Both the position numbers and the translations under genes were made by a program. Below are positions 50,800 to 58,192 of a DNA stretch of 64,000 bases, in pieces; position 1 is the first letter of the stretch; every line of letters begins with the position of its first letter. The DNA is from Escherichia coli (GTDB lineage Bacteria > Pseudomonadota > Gammaproteobacteria > Enterobacterales > Enterobacteriaceae). The stretch is taken from the NCBI RefSeq assembly GCF_024223415.1, contig NZ_CP100500.1; one strand, 5' to 3'. Under the pieces are notes generated by a model. The model worked only from the letters and a program-made list of their open reading frames with translations. It ran no database searches and was not told the origin of the DNA.

Positions 50800-51321
50800 A
50801 TGCGGGAGATTATTGCCGACAAAGAGTTATCTGGCGCTCAACCGGTTCAGGATGATGGCGCGGACAATGAATTCATTGAAGCTGCCAACGACAACGAACA
50901 CCTGGAAACCAAAACCAGACCGTCCTACAAAAAGGGCGCAACCCTACGACTGGACGGCCCAGTCGCAGGACTTGTGTCACTGGAAAAAGGGGCTGCCTAT
51001 CTGGGGGTAACAAAATCTGCGCTACGCGCCGCCATTCAGCGCGGGCAGATGCCGGGTCACAAAACGCGCTCAAATCCCGAAGATGAAAAGTCAGACGGTA
51101 CATGGTGGTTTAACGCCAAAGCCTGGGACGAACTAGCCGACGAACTACTGGAGTGCGAACCGCCAGAGTGGCACAACTGGAAAAGCTACTGGACGTACGA
51201 CCGCAAGAAAAGAAAGTTTTCACCGGCAAACAAGGAGGACTGCCAGACCGTTAAAGGTAAGCAGGTTTACTCCCCCAGAGTTTCAAAACTGGAGCAACTC
51301 AAAAACAACCAGCCCGGCTAA
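50800..51321 (+). CDS. cox: Cox-like excisionase/regulator with N-terminal extension
   Basis: 173 aa, RBS AGAGGA; central HTH LEKGAAYLGVTKSALRAAIQRGQMP and GTWWFNAKAWDELADELLE resemble P2 Cox, which is ~91 aa. Confidence 0.65.
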   Translation: MREIIADKELSGAQPVQDDGADNEFIEAANDNEHLETKTRPSYKKGATLRLDGPVAGLVSLEKGAAYLGVTKSALRAAIQRGQMPGHKTRSNPEDEKSDGTWWFNAKAWDELADELLECEPPEWHNWKSYWTYDRKKRKFSPANKEDCQTVKGKQVYSPRVSKLEQLKNNQPG

Positions 51322-51536: not shown

Positions 51537-51787
51537 GAAACCTGATAAACCACAACTACTGCAATGAGGGTAATTATGTGTGGCATGGACAAATTGGACC
51601 TTATGTTAATTGTAATACTATCAATTAACTTCGGTTACCTCTTAAGCGGCGTAATTCTCATGTGCGGAGGCAAACGAAAATGAACCAGCAGTCCGCAAAA
51701 CGTGAACACAATGCGATGCGATTTAATCGCAAATATTTTGAGTTCGCCGCTATGCCGGAATAATTAAATCTGTACAGAGTCTTTAAC

Positions 51788-52126
51788 ATGAAACAGCAAC
51801 GTAATTCACGCTTTCGTAATGGTGCTGAACGTCACGCTAACCGTTTCGCTACCAGTGCATCACGTAGTAACTCCCGCTACAGCCTGAGCGAGACACACGC
51901 AACACCGGGCGGTCATGCTGTAAAACAGACTGGTCAACACACCTGGCTGATTGAGCAGGCCGGACTCGTGATCCACAGATGCCACCGCAATCCGTTTACC
52001 GGAAACCGCATTTTTGCACTGAGCAGCGGCGACAATCAGTTCGGACAGGATTTCACACTGCACGAAGCCTTGCGAACTGCCGACCGCTTAATCGAGGGGC
52101 GCAGCTTTCAGCATACCGACTACTAA
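51788..52126 (+). CDS. Hypothetical early-operon protein
   Basis: 112 aa ORF co-oriented with early operon. Confidence 0.5.
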   Translation: MKQQRNSRFRNGAERHANRFATSASRSNSRYSLSETHATPGGHAVKQTGQHTWLIEQAGLVIHRCHRNPFTGNRIFALSSGDNQFGQDFTLHEALRTADRLIEGRSFQHTDY

Positions 52127-52164
52127 GGCAAAAGGAGTCTTAATAAGACAGAAGAGGCAGCAAG

Positions 52165-52407
52165 ATGAAAAGAGCCTATAAAGAACTCATTAACCACGCG
52201 CTTCAGAATTACCATTACGGACTTACAAGCCGTGGCACTAACGGTGACGCTGTTTCACTTGCAGCACTGACTACAGCAATCAAGGGCCTGACCTGTTGCG
52301 CCTTTGGTTCCGGAGATAATGAAGCTCTGACGGAATTACAGGCCATTAATAAAGACCTGTCTGAAGGAAACGTAATAACCCCCTTTGTAATTCAGGAGGA
52401 AGCATGA
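52165..52407 (+). CDS. Hypothetical early-operon protein
   Basis: 80 aa, RBS-like GGCAGCAAG upstream. Confidence 0.5.
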   Translation: MKRAYKELINHALQNYHYGLTSRGTNGDAVSLAALTTAIKGLTCCAFGSGDNEALTELQAINKDLSEGNVITPFVIQEEA

Positions 52408-52529
52408 GCGTATTTATGTCATGGTTAATTCTTATCCTTGCCATTATTTGCGCTGTGGGGATTATGCGGGTAATTAACAGCATTAACACCATTGAATCGT
52501 TATTTACTGGCGATAAGCGCCGTAAATAA
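52404..52529 (+). CDS. Small hydrophobic peptide (41 aa, 1 TM), hypothetical
   Basis: ATGA overlap with preceding stop, strong RBS AGGAGG; MSVFMSWLILILAIICAVGIMRVINSINTIESLFTGDKRRK; below ORF-track size cutoff. Confidence 0.4.
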   Translation: MSVFMSWLILILAIICAVGIMRVINSINTIESLFTGDKRRK

Positions 52530-52609
52530 ACAGGCGTTTAACACCAGAAACAACCAGAAACATCCGCTCACGCGGAGGGGTTGACCCGCTCAAAAAGGAG
52601 AAATCAGGA

Positions 52610-52903
52610 ATGCTTAATAATAAAAAAAACCGAATCATTGATAACAGTGAACAGGTCAACAAAATAATCGAAGGCACAAACAAATTAATTAAGAAAAAAA
52701 ACAAACTAAGCCGTGAATTAATGGAACATCCGGAAGAAATATTATTAGCCATGATGCACCAGACAGAAGCGATAGCCATCGCCCTTGCCGTGCAGGCGCT
52801 TTCTGAGTTCCGGGAAGAAAACATCAGGCTGGCTCAGGAGCTGAAAAACCTCAGACGTCAGCTTCAGAGCACTGAGGCTGGCACGTCATCACGAATGCAC
52901 TGA
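52610..52903 (+). CDS. Hypothetical protein, Lys-rich N-terminus then helical C-terminus
   Basis: 97 aa, RBS AAAGGAG; 5' half markedly AT-rich compared with neighbours. Confidence 0.55.
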   Translation: MLNNKKNRIIDNSEQVNKIIEGTNKLIKKKNKLSRELMEHPEEILLAMMHQTEAIAIALAVQALSEFREENIRLAQELKNLRRQLQSTEAGTSSRMH

Positions 52904-52913
52904 GGGCCACACC

Positions 52914-53123
52914 ATGACTGCAATTCTGAGAAGACGCAATAAAACGCTTTTTACCGATACATCCGGGATGGAATACGAAGTGGAAAGCAGTGTCATAGCC
53001 ACCACCACCCGATGCCCGGCAGGTGACGAACTGATTTACGTCCACCTGACGGACGGGTCACAGATAACCGTCCTGACAGAGTCATGGCGCGAACTCGAGA
53101 TAATAAGCGAGGTAAGAACATGA
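52914..53123 (+). CDS. Hypothetical early-operon protein
   Basis: 69 aa. Confidence 0.45.
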   Translation: MTAILRRRNKTLFTDTSGMEYEVESSVIATTTRCPAGDELIYVHLTDGSQITVLTESWRELEIISEVRT

Positions 53124-53332
53124 GCAGCAAACACGATACCAACGCACGCAGACCAGGCAAAGAGGCGCGTCACCATATCGCCGTAATGCGCAACCTGCTT
53201 ATGAGTGAAATCGACGATTTTGTGGCAGGCCTGGGGCAACCGGGCGAACCAGCAACACCAGGCCAGATACACAGGGAATTACGCCGCCGCGTGGAAAACG
53301 TCGTGGATTACGTCATAAACCCGAACGACTGA
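53120..53332 (+). CDS. Hypothetical early-operon protein
   Basis: ORF track 53084..53332; preferred start MSSKHDTNARRPGK with ATGA overlap and GAGG RBS. Confidence 0.45.
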   Translation: MSSKHDTNARRPGKEARHHIAVMRNLLMSEIDDFVAGLGQPGEPATPGQIHRELRRRVENVVDYVINPND

Positions 53333-53371
53333 CGGGAACATGGCGAGCGTCAGATGACACACGCAGGGCAC

Positions 53372-53854
53372 TTATCGGGACAAACCGATCGTAATCGCAG
53401 CCATCATCTTTTCAGCGAAAGAGAGAGATTCACGATGACTGATATTCAGAGACATACAGGCTTTGTTGTACGCCACATTTTCCATGCATTCCAGGACAGG
53501 AGAGTCATGCATCTCAAGCTCTGGAAGGCGTGCCAGCAGAGCTTCCGTACTGAGGAGGGCGCTTTTGGTAATCAACTCATTGTAGCGATGGGCATGCTCA
53601 CTCGCCGCCTGCGCACGTTGCCCGAAACGACATATGAAATTACAGGCTCCGAGAACCACCACCACTGCCCCCAGCACCCAGCCGAAATGCCAGCCGGCTA
53701 CGATGAACGCACCCGCCGCAAGGATCAAAATGTTGATGATCGCATCAAGGCGACGATTGAACACCGCCGCGATGCGCTCCAGCCAGTAGCTGTACCAGAG
53801 ACGGAACATGACCTCATCCCGTTCTCTCGATTTTTTACGTTGGTTGTTTTGCAT
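53372..53854 (-). CDS. Membrane protein encoded antisense to the early operon (candidate moron)
   Basis: 160 aa, RBS GAGGG; two clear TM helices (AIINILILAAGAFIVAGW, GWVLGAVVVVLGACNFI); the overlapping + strand ORF 53354..53989 is low-complexity. Confidence 0.55.
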   Translation of the reverse strand: MQNNQRKKSRERDEVMFRLWYSYWLERIAAVFNRRLDAIINILILAAGAFIVAGWHFGWVLGAVVVVLGACNFICRFGQRAQAASEHAHRYNELITKSALLSTEALLARLPELEMHDSPVLECMENVAYNKACMSLNISHRESLSFAEKMMAAITIGLSR

Positions 53855-54088
53855 GGTGTTTTATCCCTCATCGTCATCGCTCTGCCCCTAATCAGCGCAG
53901 AGTGCAGGGTAACCTGGCTCGTGGAATTTTTGCAGCCAGACATCTTTACCCCCGGGCGTGTTGAACAAAGTGTCCGCCAGATCCACTGAACGGCGGATTC
54001 ATCAATGCTAACACGCCCTTCTTTTCCGGTTGAAGGCGAAAAAACCGGACCATTACCCCGACACAAAACAGAACAACGGAGAACAACT

Positions 54089-54643
54089 ATGCCCGCACTT
54101 AAACCTATGGGTGTATCAGGTGTACCACCGAAGCATGTCAGAGCCTGGACACAACAGGAAGATGCTCTACTGGTCGGTTTATACCCCTCCCACACCGTAC
54201 CAGAACTGACAAAACACTTTCAGAGAACCGGGCCAGCAATACGAAGCCGCATCCGTCTTTTGCTCTCTCAGGGGGTTATCCACACCAAACAACCCCCCCT
54301 GAATACAAAAGAACTCAACACGCTCATCAGGAATCGCCACACAAAAACCATCCGGGAACTCGCGAATGAACTGGGGCGCTCGACATCCACGGTGGGACTG
54401 AACCTGAGAAAAAGAGGGTACCGGTTCAGGAAATACGGGGAACTCCACCACAGAGCCAGATACAGCGATCACCTGGTGGAGTTGGTAACTGAACTGCGCG
54501 ATGAACAGGGGATGACATTCAGCGAAATCAGAAAGTACATCCGGGACACGACCGGGATATCCCTTAAAAGATGGGTCCTCGCCCGGCTTTACGCACGATA
54601 TACCGCCGCTGACACCGTGCTTTGCGAACTGCTACCGGACTGA
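54089..54643 (+). CDS. Putative DNA-binding protein with three HTH-like repeats
   Basis: ORF track 54005..54643; start moved to MPALKPMGVSG behind GGAGAA; repeated helix-turn-helix-like segments (..TVPELTKHFQRTGPAIRSRIRLL.., ..TIRELANELGRSTSTVGLNLRKRG.., ..TFSEIRKYIRDTTGISLKRW..). Confidence 0.55.
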   Translation: MPALKPMGVSGVPPKHVRAWTQQEDALLVGLYPSHTVPELTKHFQRTGPAIRSRIRLLLSQGVIHTKQPPLNTKELNTLIRNRHTKTIRELANELGRSTSTVGLNLRKRGYRFRKYGELHHRARYSDHLVELVTELRDEQGMTFSEIRKYIRDTTGISLKRWVLARLYARYTAADTVLCELLPD

Positions 54644-54966
54644 GTAACCACTATGCACACACAAAAAAACCGCTTGCCATGCCGCAATCAGTCAGGTTAC
54701 ATTTCCGCTGCACCTCATAAAACGGGTGCCGGGATTGCAACCCCCGCTGACAAACGAAGCGCACAACCGCGCCAGCGGTTTTTTTGTGCGTACCGTATCG
54801 CCACGTCTTTTTCGCACCAGAATTATGGTGGGGCGTACGGGGCCGACTTCGGTCGGGCCGGTTTCTTCGTTTGCCGGTGGTTGCAACCCTGTACGTCTCG
54901 CCACCCAGAATTGCAACCTCTGGATGGTGAGTATCCAAAAACTCACAAACGAAGAGGCCAAACACC

Positions 54967-55194
54967 ATGGCAAACCGCAAACAACAGCGCGCATACGCTG
55001 CGCGTCGTCACATCCAGACTGAAATCAACCGCAGACTTTCCCGCGCATTCCGCGTCGCGCATATCATGCACATCAATATGCTGCATGAGCGCAGCCACGC
55101 ACTGTCAAACATGTATTCCGCCGCTGTATTCAGCTACCTGGCGGATGACCTGCGCAAGCTGCAGGACCTCATTAACCAGCACTACCACCACTAA
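54967..55194 (+). CDS. Hypothetical early-operon protein
   Basis: 75 aa, basic, RBS GAAGAGG. Confidence 0.5.
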   Translation: MANRKQQRAYAARRHIQTEINRRLSRAFRVAHIMHINMLHERSHALSNMYSAAVFSYLADDLRKLQDLINQHYHH

Positions 55195-55681: not shown

Positions 55682-58192
55682 ATGAGCCATCACCACACGC
55701 ACCTGGCGTACCCGTGGAACGCCCCGCTGCCGGTTATTGATCCTGAGACATTCGGCAGAGCATTACCGCAGAAGCCAACCGCATTACAACGGGCAATCCG
55801 TGACTACCTCACCGAAGACATTCGCACTGAGGCCCGGCTGGATGAAGAAACCGTGGCCTTCCTGACAACCACGGACAAAGGTAAGCAAATTAATTCACAC
55901 CTTCACCGGGACGAAGAGCGGCAGATAAGGCTGGATAAGCTGGCACGACACAGACGCGAAAATCCGCCAACGGCGGTATCGGAGGCGATAGCCGAACTTC
56001 GCACCCTGCCCTCGTTTCTTGCCAGTGTGTTGATCCGTGATCTGGCACGACTGAACCGGAAACAGCAAAGTGCCCGCAGTGAAGGTGTAAAAAACAACAG
56101 CGCATACGTGGCCGATAATTTCGTTCGCCGTGGACTGCGTGCGCGCCTGAAACGTATTGAAAGGGTTAACGACCGCTTTGCAACGCCGGCATTCAAAACC
56201 ACCGTCGTGCGCCATCGCCTTGAAGAACTGCTCACACTGCCGCAACTCACCCGTGACGAAATCCAGCGCATCGCCACACTGACAGCCCAGGCATTCGCCG
56301 CAGAATTTGAACGCATATGTGATGAAGTTCTTGAACGGACAGGCAAGGATAATGACAGCCCGGTTATCTGGCTGCTGGCCTACCAGAAGGTGGCACGCAC
56401 AGCCTTAATTCTGGGCGTGGTCCCGCCATACTGGCCGGAACTCGAAATCAGGCACAACCGACGCACACCGCCGGACCCTGAACGGGTTCCGGGTGCGGTA
56501 CTGCGCATCACCTGCGCGACCTGGTGGAACAACCAGTTACGCCACGTCGCCGATCTCTGGCGGGAGGAGTTACTGCGCGCCGCCGGCAGAGTGTCACGTA
56601 AACAATCCCCCTATATCAGCCATGAGTCACTACTGGAGTTCCGCGAGAAGCGCCAGCGCACCCGTGACTTTCTCAAAAGCTGGGATATTGAAAACGAAGA
56701 CGGCGAGCGCCTGAGTCTGGAGGACGTGTACTGGGCTGGCCTGGGTAATCCACGCAACCGCCGCAATGAAATGATGGTCTGCGTCAGAGGGATGGAGATG
56801 GTGGCCGAATTACGGGCTGACGTCGCATTCTTCATCACAGTAACCACCCCTTCCCGCTTTCACAGCGTGAACGAGAACGGCAGCCTGAACCCGAAATACA
56901 ACGGTGCCACAGTACGAGATGCCAGTGATTATCTGGTTTACGACTTCTTCGCAGCCGTAAGAAAAAAAATAAAAAAAGAGGGGCTGGGCTGGTACGGCGT
57001 GCGAACCGCTGAGCCACACCATGACGGCACGCCACACTGGCATATGCTGGTATTCACTTCCCCGGAGAACGCAGAGCGCATCATCGAAATTATGCGCGAA
57101 GCAGCAATTAAATCAGATCGCCACGAACTGGGGGACGATATTTCACCGCGCTTTAAATGCGAGAAGATAGACCCGGAAAAAGGCACACCGGCAAGCTATA
57201 TCGCAACCTATATCGGTAAGAACCTGGACGCCAGCGCTTTCCACAACAATGATCCGAAAACCGGAAAACCTTACGTTGATGAGGAATCCGGGAAAACCAT
57301 GGCGGAAACCGTGGAGAACGCCATTGCCTGGGCAAGCCTTCACCGCATCCGTCAGTTCCAGTTTTTCGGCATTCCGCCCCGCCAGGTATGGCGTGAACTC
57401 CGCCGCCTTGCAAGCCAGATGGAGCGCAACCCGGCATCACCGAAGCACCTCGATCATGACGATATTGACGCCATTATGGCTGCCGCAGATGTGGGATGTT
57501 TTGCCACCTACATCATGAAACAGGGTGGTGTGCTCATTCCGCGCAACCAGTATCTGGTCCGCACCGCATACGAAACCGCAGACGAAGCCAACGACTACGG
57601 TGAATTCCCTCAACGTATCTACGGAATCTGCGCCCCGTCGCTCGGAGAGCGGTACACCATATGCACCCATCCGGACGAGTGGAAACTGGTTAAAAAAGAA
57701 ACAACACCAGACAACCGCACGGGCGAGGGTTTTGACCTTCAGGGCGACCCCGTCGCCCCTTGGACTCGTGGCAATAACTGTCCCCGGGATGAAAAAACAG
57801 ACAATCACGGACCAGAAAACAGGCAGGACCCCGGACGACTGACGCTTCCCGAAGAGAACCTGGAAAGCTGGCTGAATACGTTAAGCAGGGGCGATCGGAG
57901 AAAACTGCGTAATCAGATTAAAAATCAGCCGTCGGGCGCAAAAACCGGACAAAACGACACCACACCGGCATCTGACACCCCTGTAAGGGTGGGGATTGTC
58001 GTGCCTGCGGATACCGCGACGGACACGCAAATCGCCCGCGAACTTGATGCGCTGGGTGTGCAGTTGCCTGACGCGGCCATCATCTCCGTGCGTAACGGTG
58101 CCCGTGTGCGTCTGGATAACGGGGGAACAGCGTACTGGGATGAGTCAGCCCGTCACATCATCACAGAGCAGCCAGTGGAGGCGGGAGCATGA
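55682..58192 (+). CDS. A: P2 gpA-like rolling-circle replication initiator
   Basis: 836 aa; HUH-type motif TPHWHMLVF and paired tyrosines YIATYIGKN; larger than P2 A (~761 aa as I recall). Confidence 0.9.
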   Translation: MSHHHTHLAYPWNAPLPVIDPETFGRALPQKPTALQRAIRDYLTEDIRTEARLDEETVAFLTTTDKGKQINSHLHRDEERQIRLDKLARHRRENPPTAVSEAIAELRTLPSFLASVLIRDLARLNRKQQSARSEGVKNNSAYVADNFVRRGLRARLKRIERVNDRFATPAFKTTVVRHRLEELLTLPQLTRDEIQRIATLTAQAFAAEFERICDEVLERTGKDNDSPVIWLLAYQKVARTALILGVVPPYWPELEIRHNRRTPPDPERVPGAVLRITCATWWNNQLRHVADLWREELLRAAGRVSRKQSPYISHESLLEFREKRQRTRDFLKSWDIENEDGERLSLEDVYWAGLGNPRNRRNEMMVCVRGMEMVAELRADVAFFITVTTPSRFHSVNENGSLNPKYNGATVRDASDYLVYDFFAAVRKKIKKEGLGWYGVRTAEPHHDGTPHWHMLVFTSPENAERIIEIMREAAIKSDRHELGDDISPRFKCEKIDPEKGTPASYIATYIGKNLDASAFHNNDPKTGKPYVDEESGKTMAETVENAIAWASLHRIRQFQFFGIPPRQVWRELRRLASQMERNPASPKHLDHDDIDAIMAAADVGCFATYIMKQGGVLIPRNQYLVRTAYETADEANDYGEFPQRIYGICAPSLGERYTICTHPDEWKLVKKETTPDNRTGEGFDLQGDPVAPWTRGNNCPRDEKTDNHGPENRQDPGRLTLPEENLESWLNTLSRGDRRKLRNQIKNQPSGAKTGQNDTTPASDTPVRVGIVVPADTATDTQIARELDALGVQLPDAAIISVRNGARVRLDNGGTAYWDESARHIITEQPVEAGA

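Follow-up and report, generated by a model that had tools for sequence, protein, structure and literature searches.

An A-rich 5′ half in a small accessory gene of the early operon of a P2-family prophage of Escherichia coli

In the stretch of Escherichia coli DNA analysed here (64,000 nucleotides, referred to as the window), an open reading frame of 97 codons in the early operon of a prophage begins with a strongly AT-rich half. The question raised by this locus is what such a composition records: a recently acquired insert or a target prone to H-NS-type silencing, both of which had been suggested in a first-pass annotation, or a property of the gene itself. The plain reading, and in our view the likely one, is that of a small coiled-coil accessory gene with an N-terminal helix specified by AT-rich DNA of long standing.

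Sliding-window GC calculation and maximal-scoring segment analysis delimited an A-rich segment at positions 52592–52747 of the plus strand (156 bp, 28.2% GC, A = 53%, T = 19%), which spans the ribosome-binding site and codons 1–46 of the 97-aa ORF. The composition was not uniform, and the AT-rich stretch that had been noticed was borne out, with 28% GC in the segment against 51% in the window. Within the ORF itself, located on the plus strand at 52610–52903 (stop codon included) and annotated by PGAP as a hypothetical protein, the GC content was 29.0% at 52610–52740 and 53.4% at 52741–52903, as compared with 51.0% across the 64-kb window. The minimum for 100 nt was 25% GC, at 52609–52610, a value within the bottom 0.16% of all 100-nt windows; this trough ranked third lowest in the 64 kb, and by segment score 52592–52747 ranked fourth. 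The early operon around the tract has about 53% GC, against 28% in the tract. The AT-richness is not symmetric between the strands, the excess of A on the coding strand giving an AT skew of about +0.5.

The long A runs reported earlier were confirmed as two A8 runs on the plus strand, one at 52622–52629 (codons AAA AAA AAC, encoding K5, K6 and N7) and the other at 52694–52701 (K28–K30), out of six A8/T8 runs in the entire window. The description of the peptide as rich in Lys and Asn was likewise correct, residues 1–44 containing eight Lys, seven Asn, six Ile and six Glu. The leader had also been described as AT-rich, and this did not hold: 52530–52609 has 51% GC, 52560–52589 as much as 70%, and the A-rich part of the leader is limited to its final 20 nt, near the ribosome-binding site (35% GC).

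The host element is a complete prophage of the P2 family, extending from 49.3 kb onward and adjoining dmsA. Its early region shows the arrangement of the Peduoviridae: the Cox gene (50800–51318; PF10743 Phage_Cox, E = 1.5e-8) is the first of a rightward operon, and the integrase and a helix-turn-helix repressor gene are found on the minus strand, divergent from Cox. An 836-aa ORF at 55682–58192, on the same strand as Cox, is annotated as a replication endonuclease, and the gpA homologue of a relative (locus L015) matches PF05840 Phage_GPA. The P2-type structural genes are located 3′ (portal, terminase, GPO scaffold, P2-family capsid, gpM, baseplate, sheath/tube and Ogr). The small early genes encode, in order, a 68-aa protein, a DUF4761 protein, a DUF4754 protein, a 41-aa peptide, the 97-aa ORF product, and proteins of 69 and 70 aa; beyond the 70-aa gene there are a minus-strand 160-aa gene and genes for a 212-aa DNA-binding protein, a 75-aa “derepression” protein (PF25738) and a 137-aa ORF product. 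The DUF4754 gene is shared with one sequenced phage only, Escherichia phage 520873 (Peduoviridae, Xuanwuvirus). A consensus scan of 51732–54764 showed no plus-strand terminator-like site, so the 97-aa ORF would most simply be co-transcribed with the early operon.

Two genes flank the position occupied by the 97-aa ORF, hereafter the slot. Its upstream anchor is the plus-strand gene for the 41-aa hydrophobic peptide (52404–52529), which overlaps the DUF4754 stop codon. This peptide, which may be a small membrane protein, is 59% identical to a 37-aa version encoded in IHE3034-type prophages, and a gene for the 41-aa or the 37-aa form was found in all the relatives examined. The downstream anchor is the plus-strand 69-aa ORF (52914–53123), a homologue of the 67–83-aa gene found 3′ of the slot in relatives.

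Further features were observed in the early region distal to the slot. The 160-aa ORF (53372–53854, minus strand), which opposes the plus-strand early operon and is also present in strain CM2, gave only weak matches, to SLATT_1 (E = 0.006) and BaxI_1 (E = 0.018). The Rfam search identified an isrK Hfq-binding RNA at 54710–54785 (61.9 bits, gathering threshold 50) and a C4 antisense RNA at 54821–54908 (79.3 bits, threshold 45), adjacent to each other and just 5′ of the 75-aa derepression protein gene (54967–55194, PF25738); a plus-strand terminator-like hairpin (54765–54780) lies inside the isrK match. This set resembles the immI-type antisense-controlled antirepressor module of P1/P7, here in a P2-family early region.

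The 97-aa ORF has the features of a translated gene. A Shine-Dalgarno sequence, AGGAG, is found at 52596–52600 on the plus strand, 9 nt 5′ of the ATG. About 8% of random codons drawn at the composition of the ORF are stops, and the probability of 97 stop-free codons is 0.003; the remaining two frames of the region contain many stops. The only length variant among the copies of the gene keeps the frame: in strain LH10-b-1 the second A run is A14, an in-frame change that adds two Lys residues. The three substitutions found among the copies are all non-synonymous. Programmed frameshifting or slippage at the A8 runs was considered and rejected, since a –1 or +1 shift at the first run (52622–52629) terminates after 4 or 12 further codons, respectively, and the shifted frames at both runs stop within 2–12 codons.

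The AlphaFold2 model of the protein consists of two helices, residues 2–39 and 41–95, with a pLDDT of 90 (84 when the family alignment was given). A C-terminal heptad region (residues 64–85, alignment A5; plus strand, 52799–52864) was recognized by direct reading of the 3-4 spacing of the hydrophobic residues L64, F67, I71, L74, L78, L81 and L85. From these features we infer a coiled-coil interaction protein, in which the conserved C-terminal heptads would have a role in protein interaction. No meaningful match for the 97-aa protein was obtained in Pfam, PHROGs, NCBIfam, PADLOC, PDB sequences or Foldseek. PADLOC also gave no match for the neighbouring hypothetical genes scanned; Cox matched mad1 (E = 8e-7), and the 92-aa-type homologues described below showed weak PDC-M64B/C matches. 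A link to a defence system was rejected, as the matches of the homologues were weak (E ~1e-3) and the window protein had none.

The leader of the 97-aa ORF is homologous to that of the relatives and contains, at the upstream edge of the slot, a hairpin at 52563–52576 (TCCGC-TCAC-GCGGA). The stem TCCGC-N4-GCGGA is paired in 10 of 10 diverged relatives (homologous hairpin loci L002, L003, L010, L012–L015, L017 and L019), with seven different loops and one compensatory change from C:G to U:A. On the minus strand the hairpin is followed by a T-rich tail, and the scan scored it as terminator-like both in the window and in each of the four relatives covered; a minus-strand terminator, an mRNA stabiliser and a protein-binding site are candidate functions. 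Immediately 5′ of the hairpin, the leader carries a perfect tandem 10-bp repeat, ACCAGAAACA twice (52543–52562, plus strand), of which strain SCU-115 has a single copy. The origin of the 5′ half of the gene as a duplicate of the A-rich leader and hairpin was also considered, comparing the window sequence CAAATTAATTAAGAAAA with CAAATTAAATAAGAAAA of locus L010. It was rejected: the local alignment reached p ~0.02–0.16 against dinucleotide shuffles before correction for multiple tests, and an nhmmer leader profile gave E = 0.0099 for the true leader and E = 15 for the intragenic site.

In strain F11 the ORF is split, within its AT-rich half, by an IS5-family element of about 860 bp (locus L005, 3134–3993) with the inverted repeats AGCCTATCCCAATAGG and AACCTATCCCAAAAGG; the target pentamer CTAAG, at 52706–52710 in the window, is duplicated there. 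Prophage copies are often decayed (L004, L005, L007 and L020). Strain GF4 has a truncated replication gene, LH10-b-1 a deletion that fuses the DNA-binding gene with genes for virion morphogenesis, and F11 a deletion extending to the tape-measure gene; in DG341-1, with 100% identity to the window, the tape-measure gene is a pseudogene.

The distribution of the gene was compared with that of its surroundings. DNA of the 97-aa ORF was found in 26 of 5,426 complete E. coli genomes, in all cases with at least 97% identity and always in this prophage, and the flanking DUF4761 and derepression-gene regions had a match in 1,434 complete E. coli genomes. In strain CM2 (locus L013), the relative with the most similar gene order, which also has the minus-strand gene and the DNA-binding gene, the 41-aa gene is followed by the 69-aa homologue and the slot is empty. 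In relatives of the IHE3034 and ETEC1734 types, the DUF4754 gene, a short hydrophobic peptide gene and the homologous leader are followed by the 69-aa homologue, and the 97-aa ORF is absent. The ORF is thus not universally conserved in related prophages.

From the 1,325 records with an IHE3034-type module, 60 spread over the ranking were sampled to survey the slot. It was empty in about 22 of these loci, and in about 33 an insertion of 441–446 bp at the same point carried a gene for a 136–138-aa protein (O157:H7, ST131, NU14 and others); one locus contained a 105-aa gene. These alternative slot genes have a GC content of 0.38–0.46, below that of the flanks. The slot, directly 3′ of the conserved leader hairpin, therefore exists in at least four states, with three gene families that have no detectable mutual similarity, and the occurrence of the empty, 136–138-aa, 105-aa and 97-aa-type states at one point indicates that it is prone to gene exchange. 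Homology between the 97-aa ORF and the 136–138-aa gene (alignment A3) was specifically considered and rejected: BLASTP gave no alignment, hhalign a probability of 0.2–1.5%, and the HMM score was equalled by 1599 and 546 of 5000 shuffles, none of these being significant. The two proteins have a short “EL..LR.Q” motif in common.

Only near-identical E. coli copies of the 97-aa protein were returned by phmmer-type searches of two collections (5.8 and 1.84 billion proteins), by tblastn against phages, and by Pfam and PHROGs. Its status as an orphan was nevertheless rejected, because synteny, followed through the 69/70-aa genes into more distant prophages, uncovered a family. The slot of strain JNEC-KY202 contains a 92-aa ORF (WP_471721876.1, an example of the 92-aa proteins of clusters P0091–P0120) which is like the window ORF in location, similar length and C-terminal motif, and its product matched the window protein in BLASTP with E = 9e-6 (41% identity over residues 53–84). 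Searching with a profile built from both sequences yielded 34 clusters, exclusively of E. coli origin, which fall into three subtypes: MLNNKK (97–99 aa, to which the window protein belongs), MSINTPTE (92 aa, extended to 162 aa in some cases) and MFxNE (92 aa). The genomic context was fetched for four members, all of which lie between the 41-aa peptide gene and the 70-aa gene; in the prophages encoding 92-aa proteins the order is DUF4754, the 41-aa gene, the hairpin, the family gene, and the 69–83-aa and 70-aa genes. The residues invariant in alignment A5 are M1, N4, S65, L74, E77, L78, L81, R82 and Q84. Within this small family (92–99 aa, specific to E. coli prophages) the window protein has diverged furthest.

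The 92-aa proteins differ from the window protein in several respects. Identity is 25–33%, with N-terminal halves that are barely alignable; significant similarity is limited to the C-terminal 32 residues, and the N-terminal half alone gave no significant match. The N-terminal half of the window copy is basic (eight Lys, two Arg) and rich in Lys and Asn, whereas that of the MSIN-type homologues is acidic. Among the 92-aa homologues dN/dS was 0.5–1.05, which indicates a rapidly evolving family, and synonymous sites were saturated relative to the window copy; together with the three non-synonymous substitutions out of three, the high dN/dS suggests weak purifying selection. Some homologues of the 92-aa type have a C-terminal extension of 70 aa (162 aa in total). 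One such member, with a Cys/His-containing tail, is encoded in locus L019 (1243–3318), where its gene is followed by genes of an Rv2179c-like exoribonuclease family and of a D12-class (Dam-type) methyltransferase in place of the 69/70-aa genes, a further case of mosaicism in this early region.

The contribution of the peptide to the low GC content was estimated by drawing synonymous codons at random according to the codon usage of the prophage itself, with the peptide unchanged. The GC content at the three codon positions is 0.36, 0.16 and 0.34 for codons 1–44 and 0.60, 0.40 and 0.62 for codons 45–97. For the 5′ half the expected GC content was 35.6 ± 2.5% and the observed one 28.8% (p = 0.006), and the expected GC3 was 0.53 and the observed one 0.34 (p = 0.007); the 3′ half was as expected. 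Codons 45–97 fit the local GC content and codon usage, and only codons 1–44 deviate. About three quarters of the GC drop is explained by a composition rich in Lys, Asn, Ile and Glu, and about one quarter by the choice of A/T-ending codons.

The same analysis of the homologues gave, for the 5′ 42 codons, a GC content of 34–40% with GC3 of 0.31–0.45, and for the 3′ parts a GC content of 50–57% with GC3 of 0.60–0.69; the 5′ GC3 deficit had p values of 0.0008, 0.0008, 0.016 and 0.10. The window copy is more extreme in its 5′ half (29% GC, as compared with 34–40%). Since the same gradient, from AT-rich at the 5′ end to a normal GC content at the 3′ end, is found in distant homologues from the same slot, it appears to be an old trait of the family and not the scar of a recent insertion, and since it is common to the subtypes, it should be older than their divergence. 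The basic N-terminus of the window protein and the acidic one of the MSIN type further suggest that the richness in Lys and Asn looks like the outcome of a helix under weak constraint being encoded by AT-rich DNA, and not of selection for a basic peptide.

Bacterial gene starts are generally AT-rich and weakly structured, which favours the initiation of translation. The start of the 97-aa ORF is similar to this general bias in that its GC3 is below that of the rest of the gene, and a milder lowering of GC3 in the first 42 codons was also found in the DUF4761 and DUF4754 genes of the same operon, so that the codon-level effect is in part a general phenomenon of 5′ ends. It differs in its extent, about 44 codons (130 nt), far beyond the needs of initiation, and in that GC1 and GC2 are also low.

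These results bear directly on the suggestion of a recently acquired insert. Its accessory part stands, as the gene is found in 26 of 5,426 genomes and the slot is empty in CM2, but its recent part does not, given the gradient common to distant homologues. In the form of a classical moron, that is, a low-GC gene that came from another genome and has not yet been ameliorated, we consider the explanation unlikely. The polymorphism of presence and absence among related phages, including the lack of the ORF in CM2 and the IHE3034-type relatives, agrees with it, as do the near-identity of all 26 copies, the GC3 of the 5′ half under expectation and the low GC content of the other genes found in the slot, and P2-like phages have been reported to contain unique horizontally acquired genes (PMC3448106). 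A moron would be atypical over the entire gene, however, and here the AT-richness is confined to the 44 5′ codons, with a 3′ half that fits the local codon usage exactly; distant homologues in the same slot have the same gradient. A foreign donor was rejected, as blastn against phages and plasmids gave no match, and none was found in 50,697 phage records, 72,556 plasmids and about 15 billion proteins. The promoter and terminator pair of a moron is also absent: the consensus scan showed no plus-strand promoter-like match in the leader, and promoter-like matches were not above shuffles. A spurious or newly arisen ORF in the degenerating spacer of a decaying prophage would account for a family dN/dS near 1, for substitutions that are all non-synonymous, for a low-complexity N-terminus and the absence of a known domain, and for the many decayed copies, among them the IS-interrupted one of F11. 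We regard such a non-functional origin as very unlikely, because the frame is open over 92–99 codons in three subtypes despite saturated synonymous sites, and because a good Shine-Dalgarno sequence, a conserved C-terminal heptad motif, a confident prediction of helices and an in-frame indel all speak against it.

A functional DNA or RNA element overlapping the coding sequence could instead keep the 5′ half AT-rich by selection, the candidates being an H-NS nucleation tract, an intragenic or antisense promoter and an A-rich (ARN-type) RNA-binding platform. Such an element would fit 156 bp at 28% GC in an operon of about 53% GC and an AT excess at synonymous sites that is common to three subtypes despite saturated divergence; the landing of an IS in the tract in F11 points the same way, as do the promoter-like matches inside the tract and the two partial matches to an H-NS motif given below. 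We nevertheless judge it rather improbable. The sequence TCGATAAATT is the high-affinity nucleation motif of H-NS, and stretches of E. coli DNA on which H-NS can bring about silencing usually extend over several hundred base pairs or more. The tract is like H-NS-silenced xenogeneic DNA in its AT content, well above the host average (28% against 51% GC), and in its location inside a mobile element. It is unlike such DNA in being short (156 bp) and within a transcribed operon, and in its lack of a high-affinity motif and of A-tract phasing. Two matches to TCGATAAATT were found, each of 8 in 10 positions (52662–52671 and 52716–52725), and none in the tract with fewer than two mismatches; AA/TT periodicity at 10–11 bp in the tract was not above that of shuffles, and intrinsic curvature was rejected for the absence of phased A-tracts. 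Promoter-like matches in the region were near chance (6, with 5.2 expected). Three are inside the tract, one of them on the minus strand (52644–52617) and facing the terminator-like hairpin (52576–52563), but no minus-strand promoter-like site was present at the equivalent position in L014, L015, L002 and L013, and an antisense sRNA running from this promoter to the hairpin terminator is unsupported because the site is not conserved in these four relatives. The Rfam search of the AT-rich stretch gave no family, and its RNA fold z-score (–1.35) was unremarkable.

The preferred reading is thus that of a small accessory gene with a coiled-coil product. The AT-rich stretch would be the coding sequence for the N-terminal helix of a 97-aa all-helical accessory protein, and the gene would occupy a hypervariable slot of the Cox-to-gpA early operon, directly after the leader hairpin. 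A weakly constrained N-terminal helix rich in Lys, Asn, Ile and Glu would lower the expected GC content from about 53% to 36%, and an added preference for A/T-ending codons would lower it from 36% to the observed 29%. The gene would share the transcript of the early operon, with its own AGGAG serving for translation. Its C-terminal leucine-heptad segment may oligomerise or bind a partner, the variable N-terminal half may tune specificity, and the product could be a small phage protein acting in host takeover or in phage–phage conflict. The AT-rich front half is in these terms ordinary phage mosaicism and not proof of a fresh insertion. An accessory gene alone does not account for the persistence of the AT-richness of the 5′ half through saturated divergence.

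A more far-reaching reading, to which we give a slim chance, would combine an undescribed gene-exchange hotspot of the P2-family early operon, located after the hairpin, with selection at the nucleic-acid level on the AT-rich 5′ half. If it were true, the candidate mechanisms would be silencing of the H-NS type in the lysogen, or antisense control by transcription that stops at the hairpin scored as terminator-like on the minus strand, and such control would regulate an early protein of phage–host or phage–phage conflict.

For the plain reading the import for biology at large is small, one more fast-evolving accessory gene in a mosaic region of temperate phages. Two points are of wider use. 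Word-indexed and exhaustive searches both indicated an orphan, and synteny recovered a family, which shows how easily an “ORFan” call for a short phage protein can be overturned. In addition, about a quarter of the complete E. coli genomes contain a prophage of this group, in whose early operon a conserved hairpin is followed by a defined variable slot, distinct from the gpA–gpQ defence hotspot, and this slot could be screened for anti-defence or exclusion functions.

In P2 the gpA–gpQ locus is a documented hotspot of variation that carries defence genes (PMC9122126). The slot described here lies inside the early operon, 5′ of gpA, and the P2 hotspot, which is proximal to cos, between gpA and gpQ. 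The 97-aa ORF is similar to the old and tin genes of P2, both located in that hotspot, in being a non-essential, patchily distributed gene in an otherwise conserved P2-type genome; it differs from them in its far smaller size, in an AT-richness limited to one half, and in having no convincing match to a defence family.
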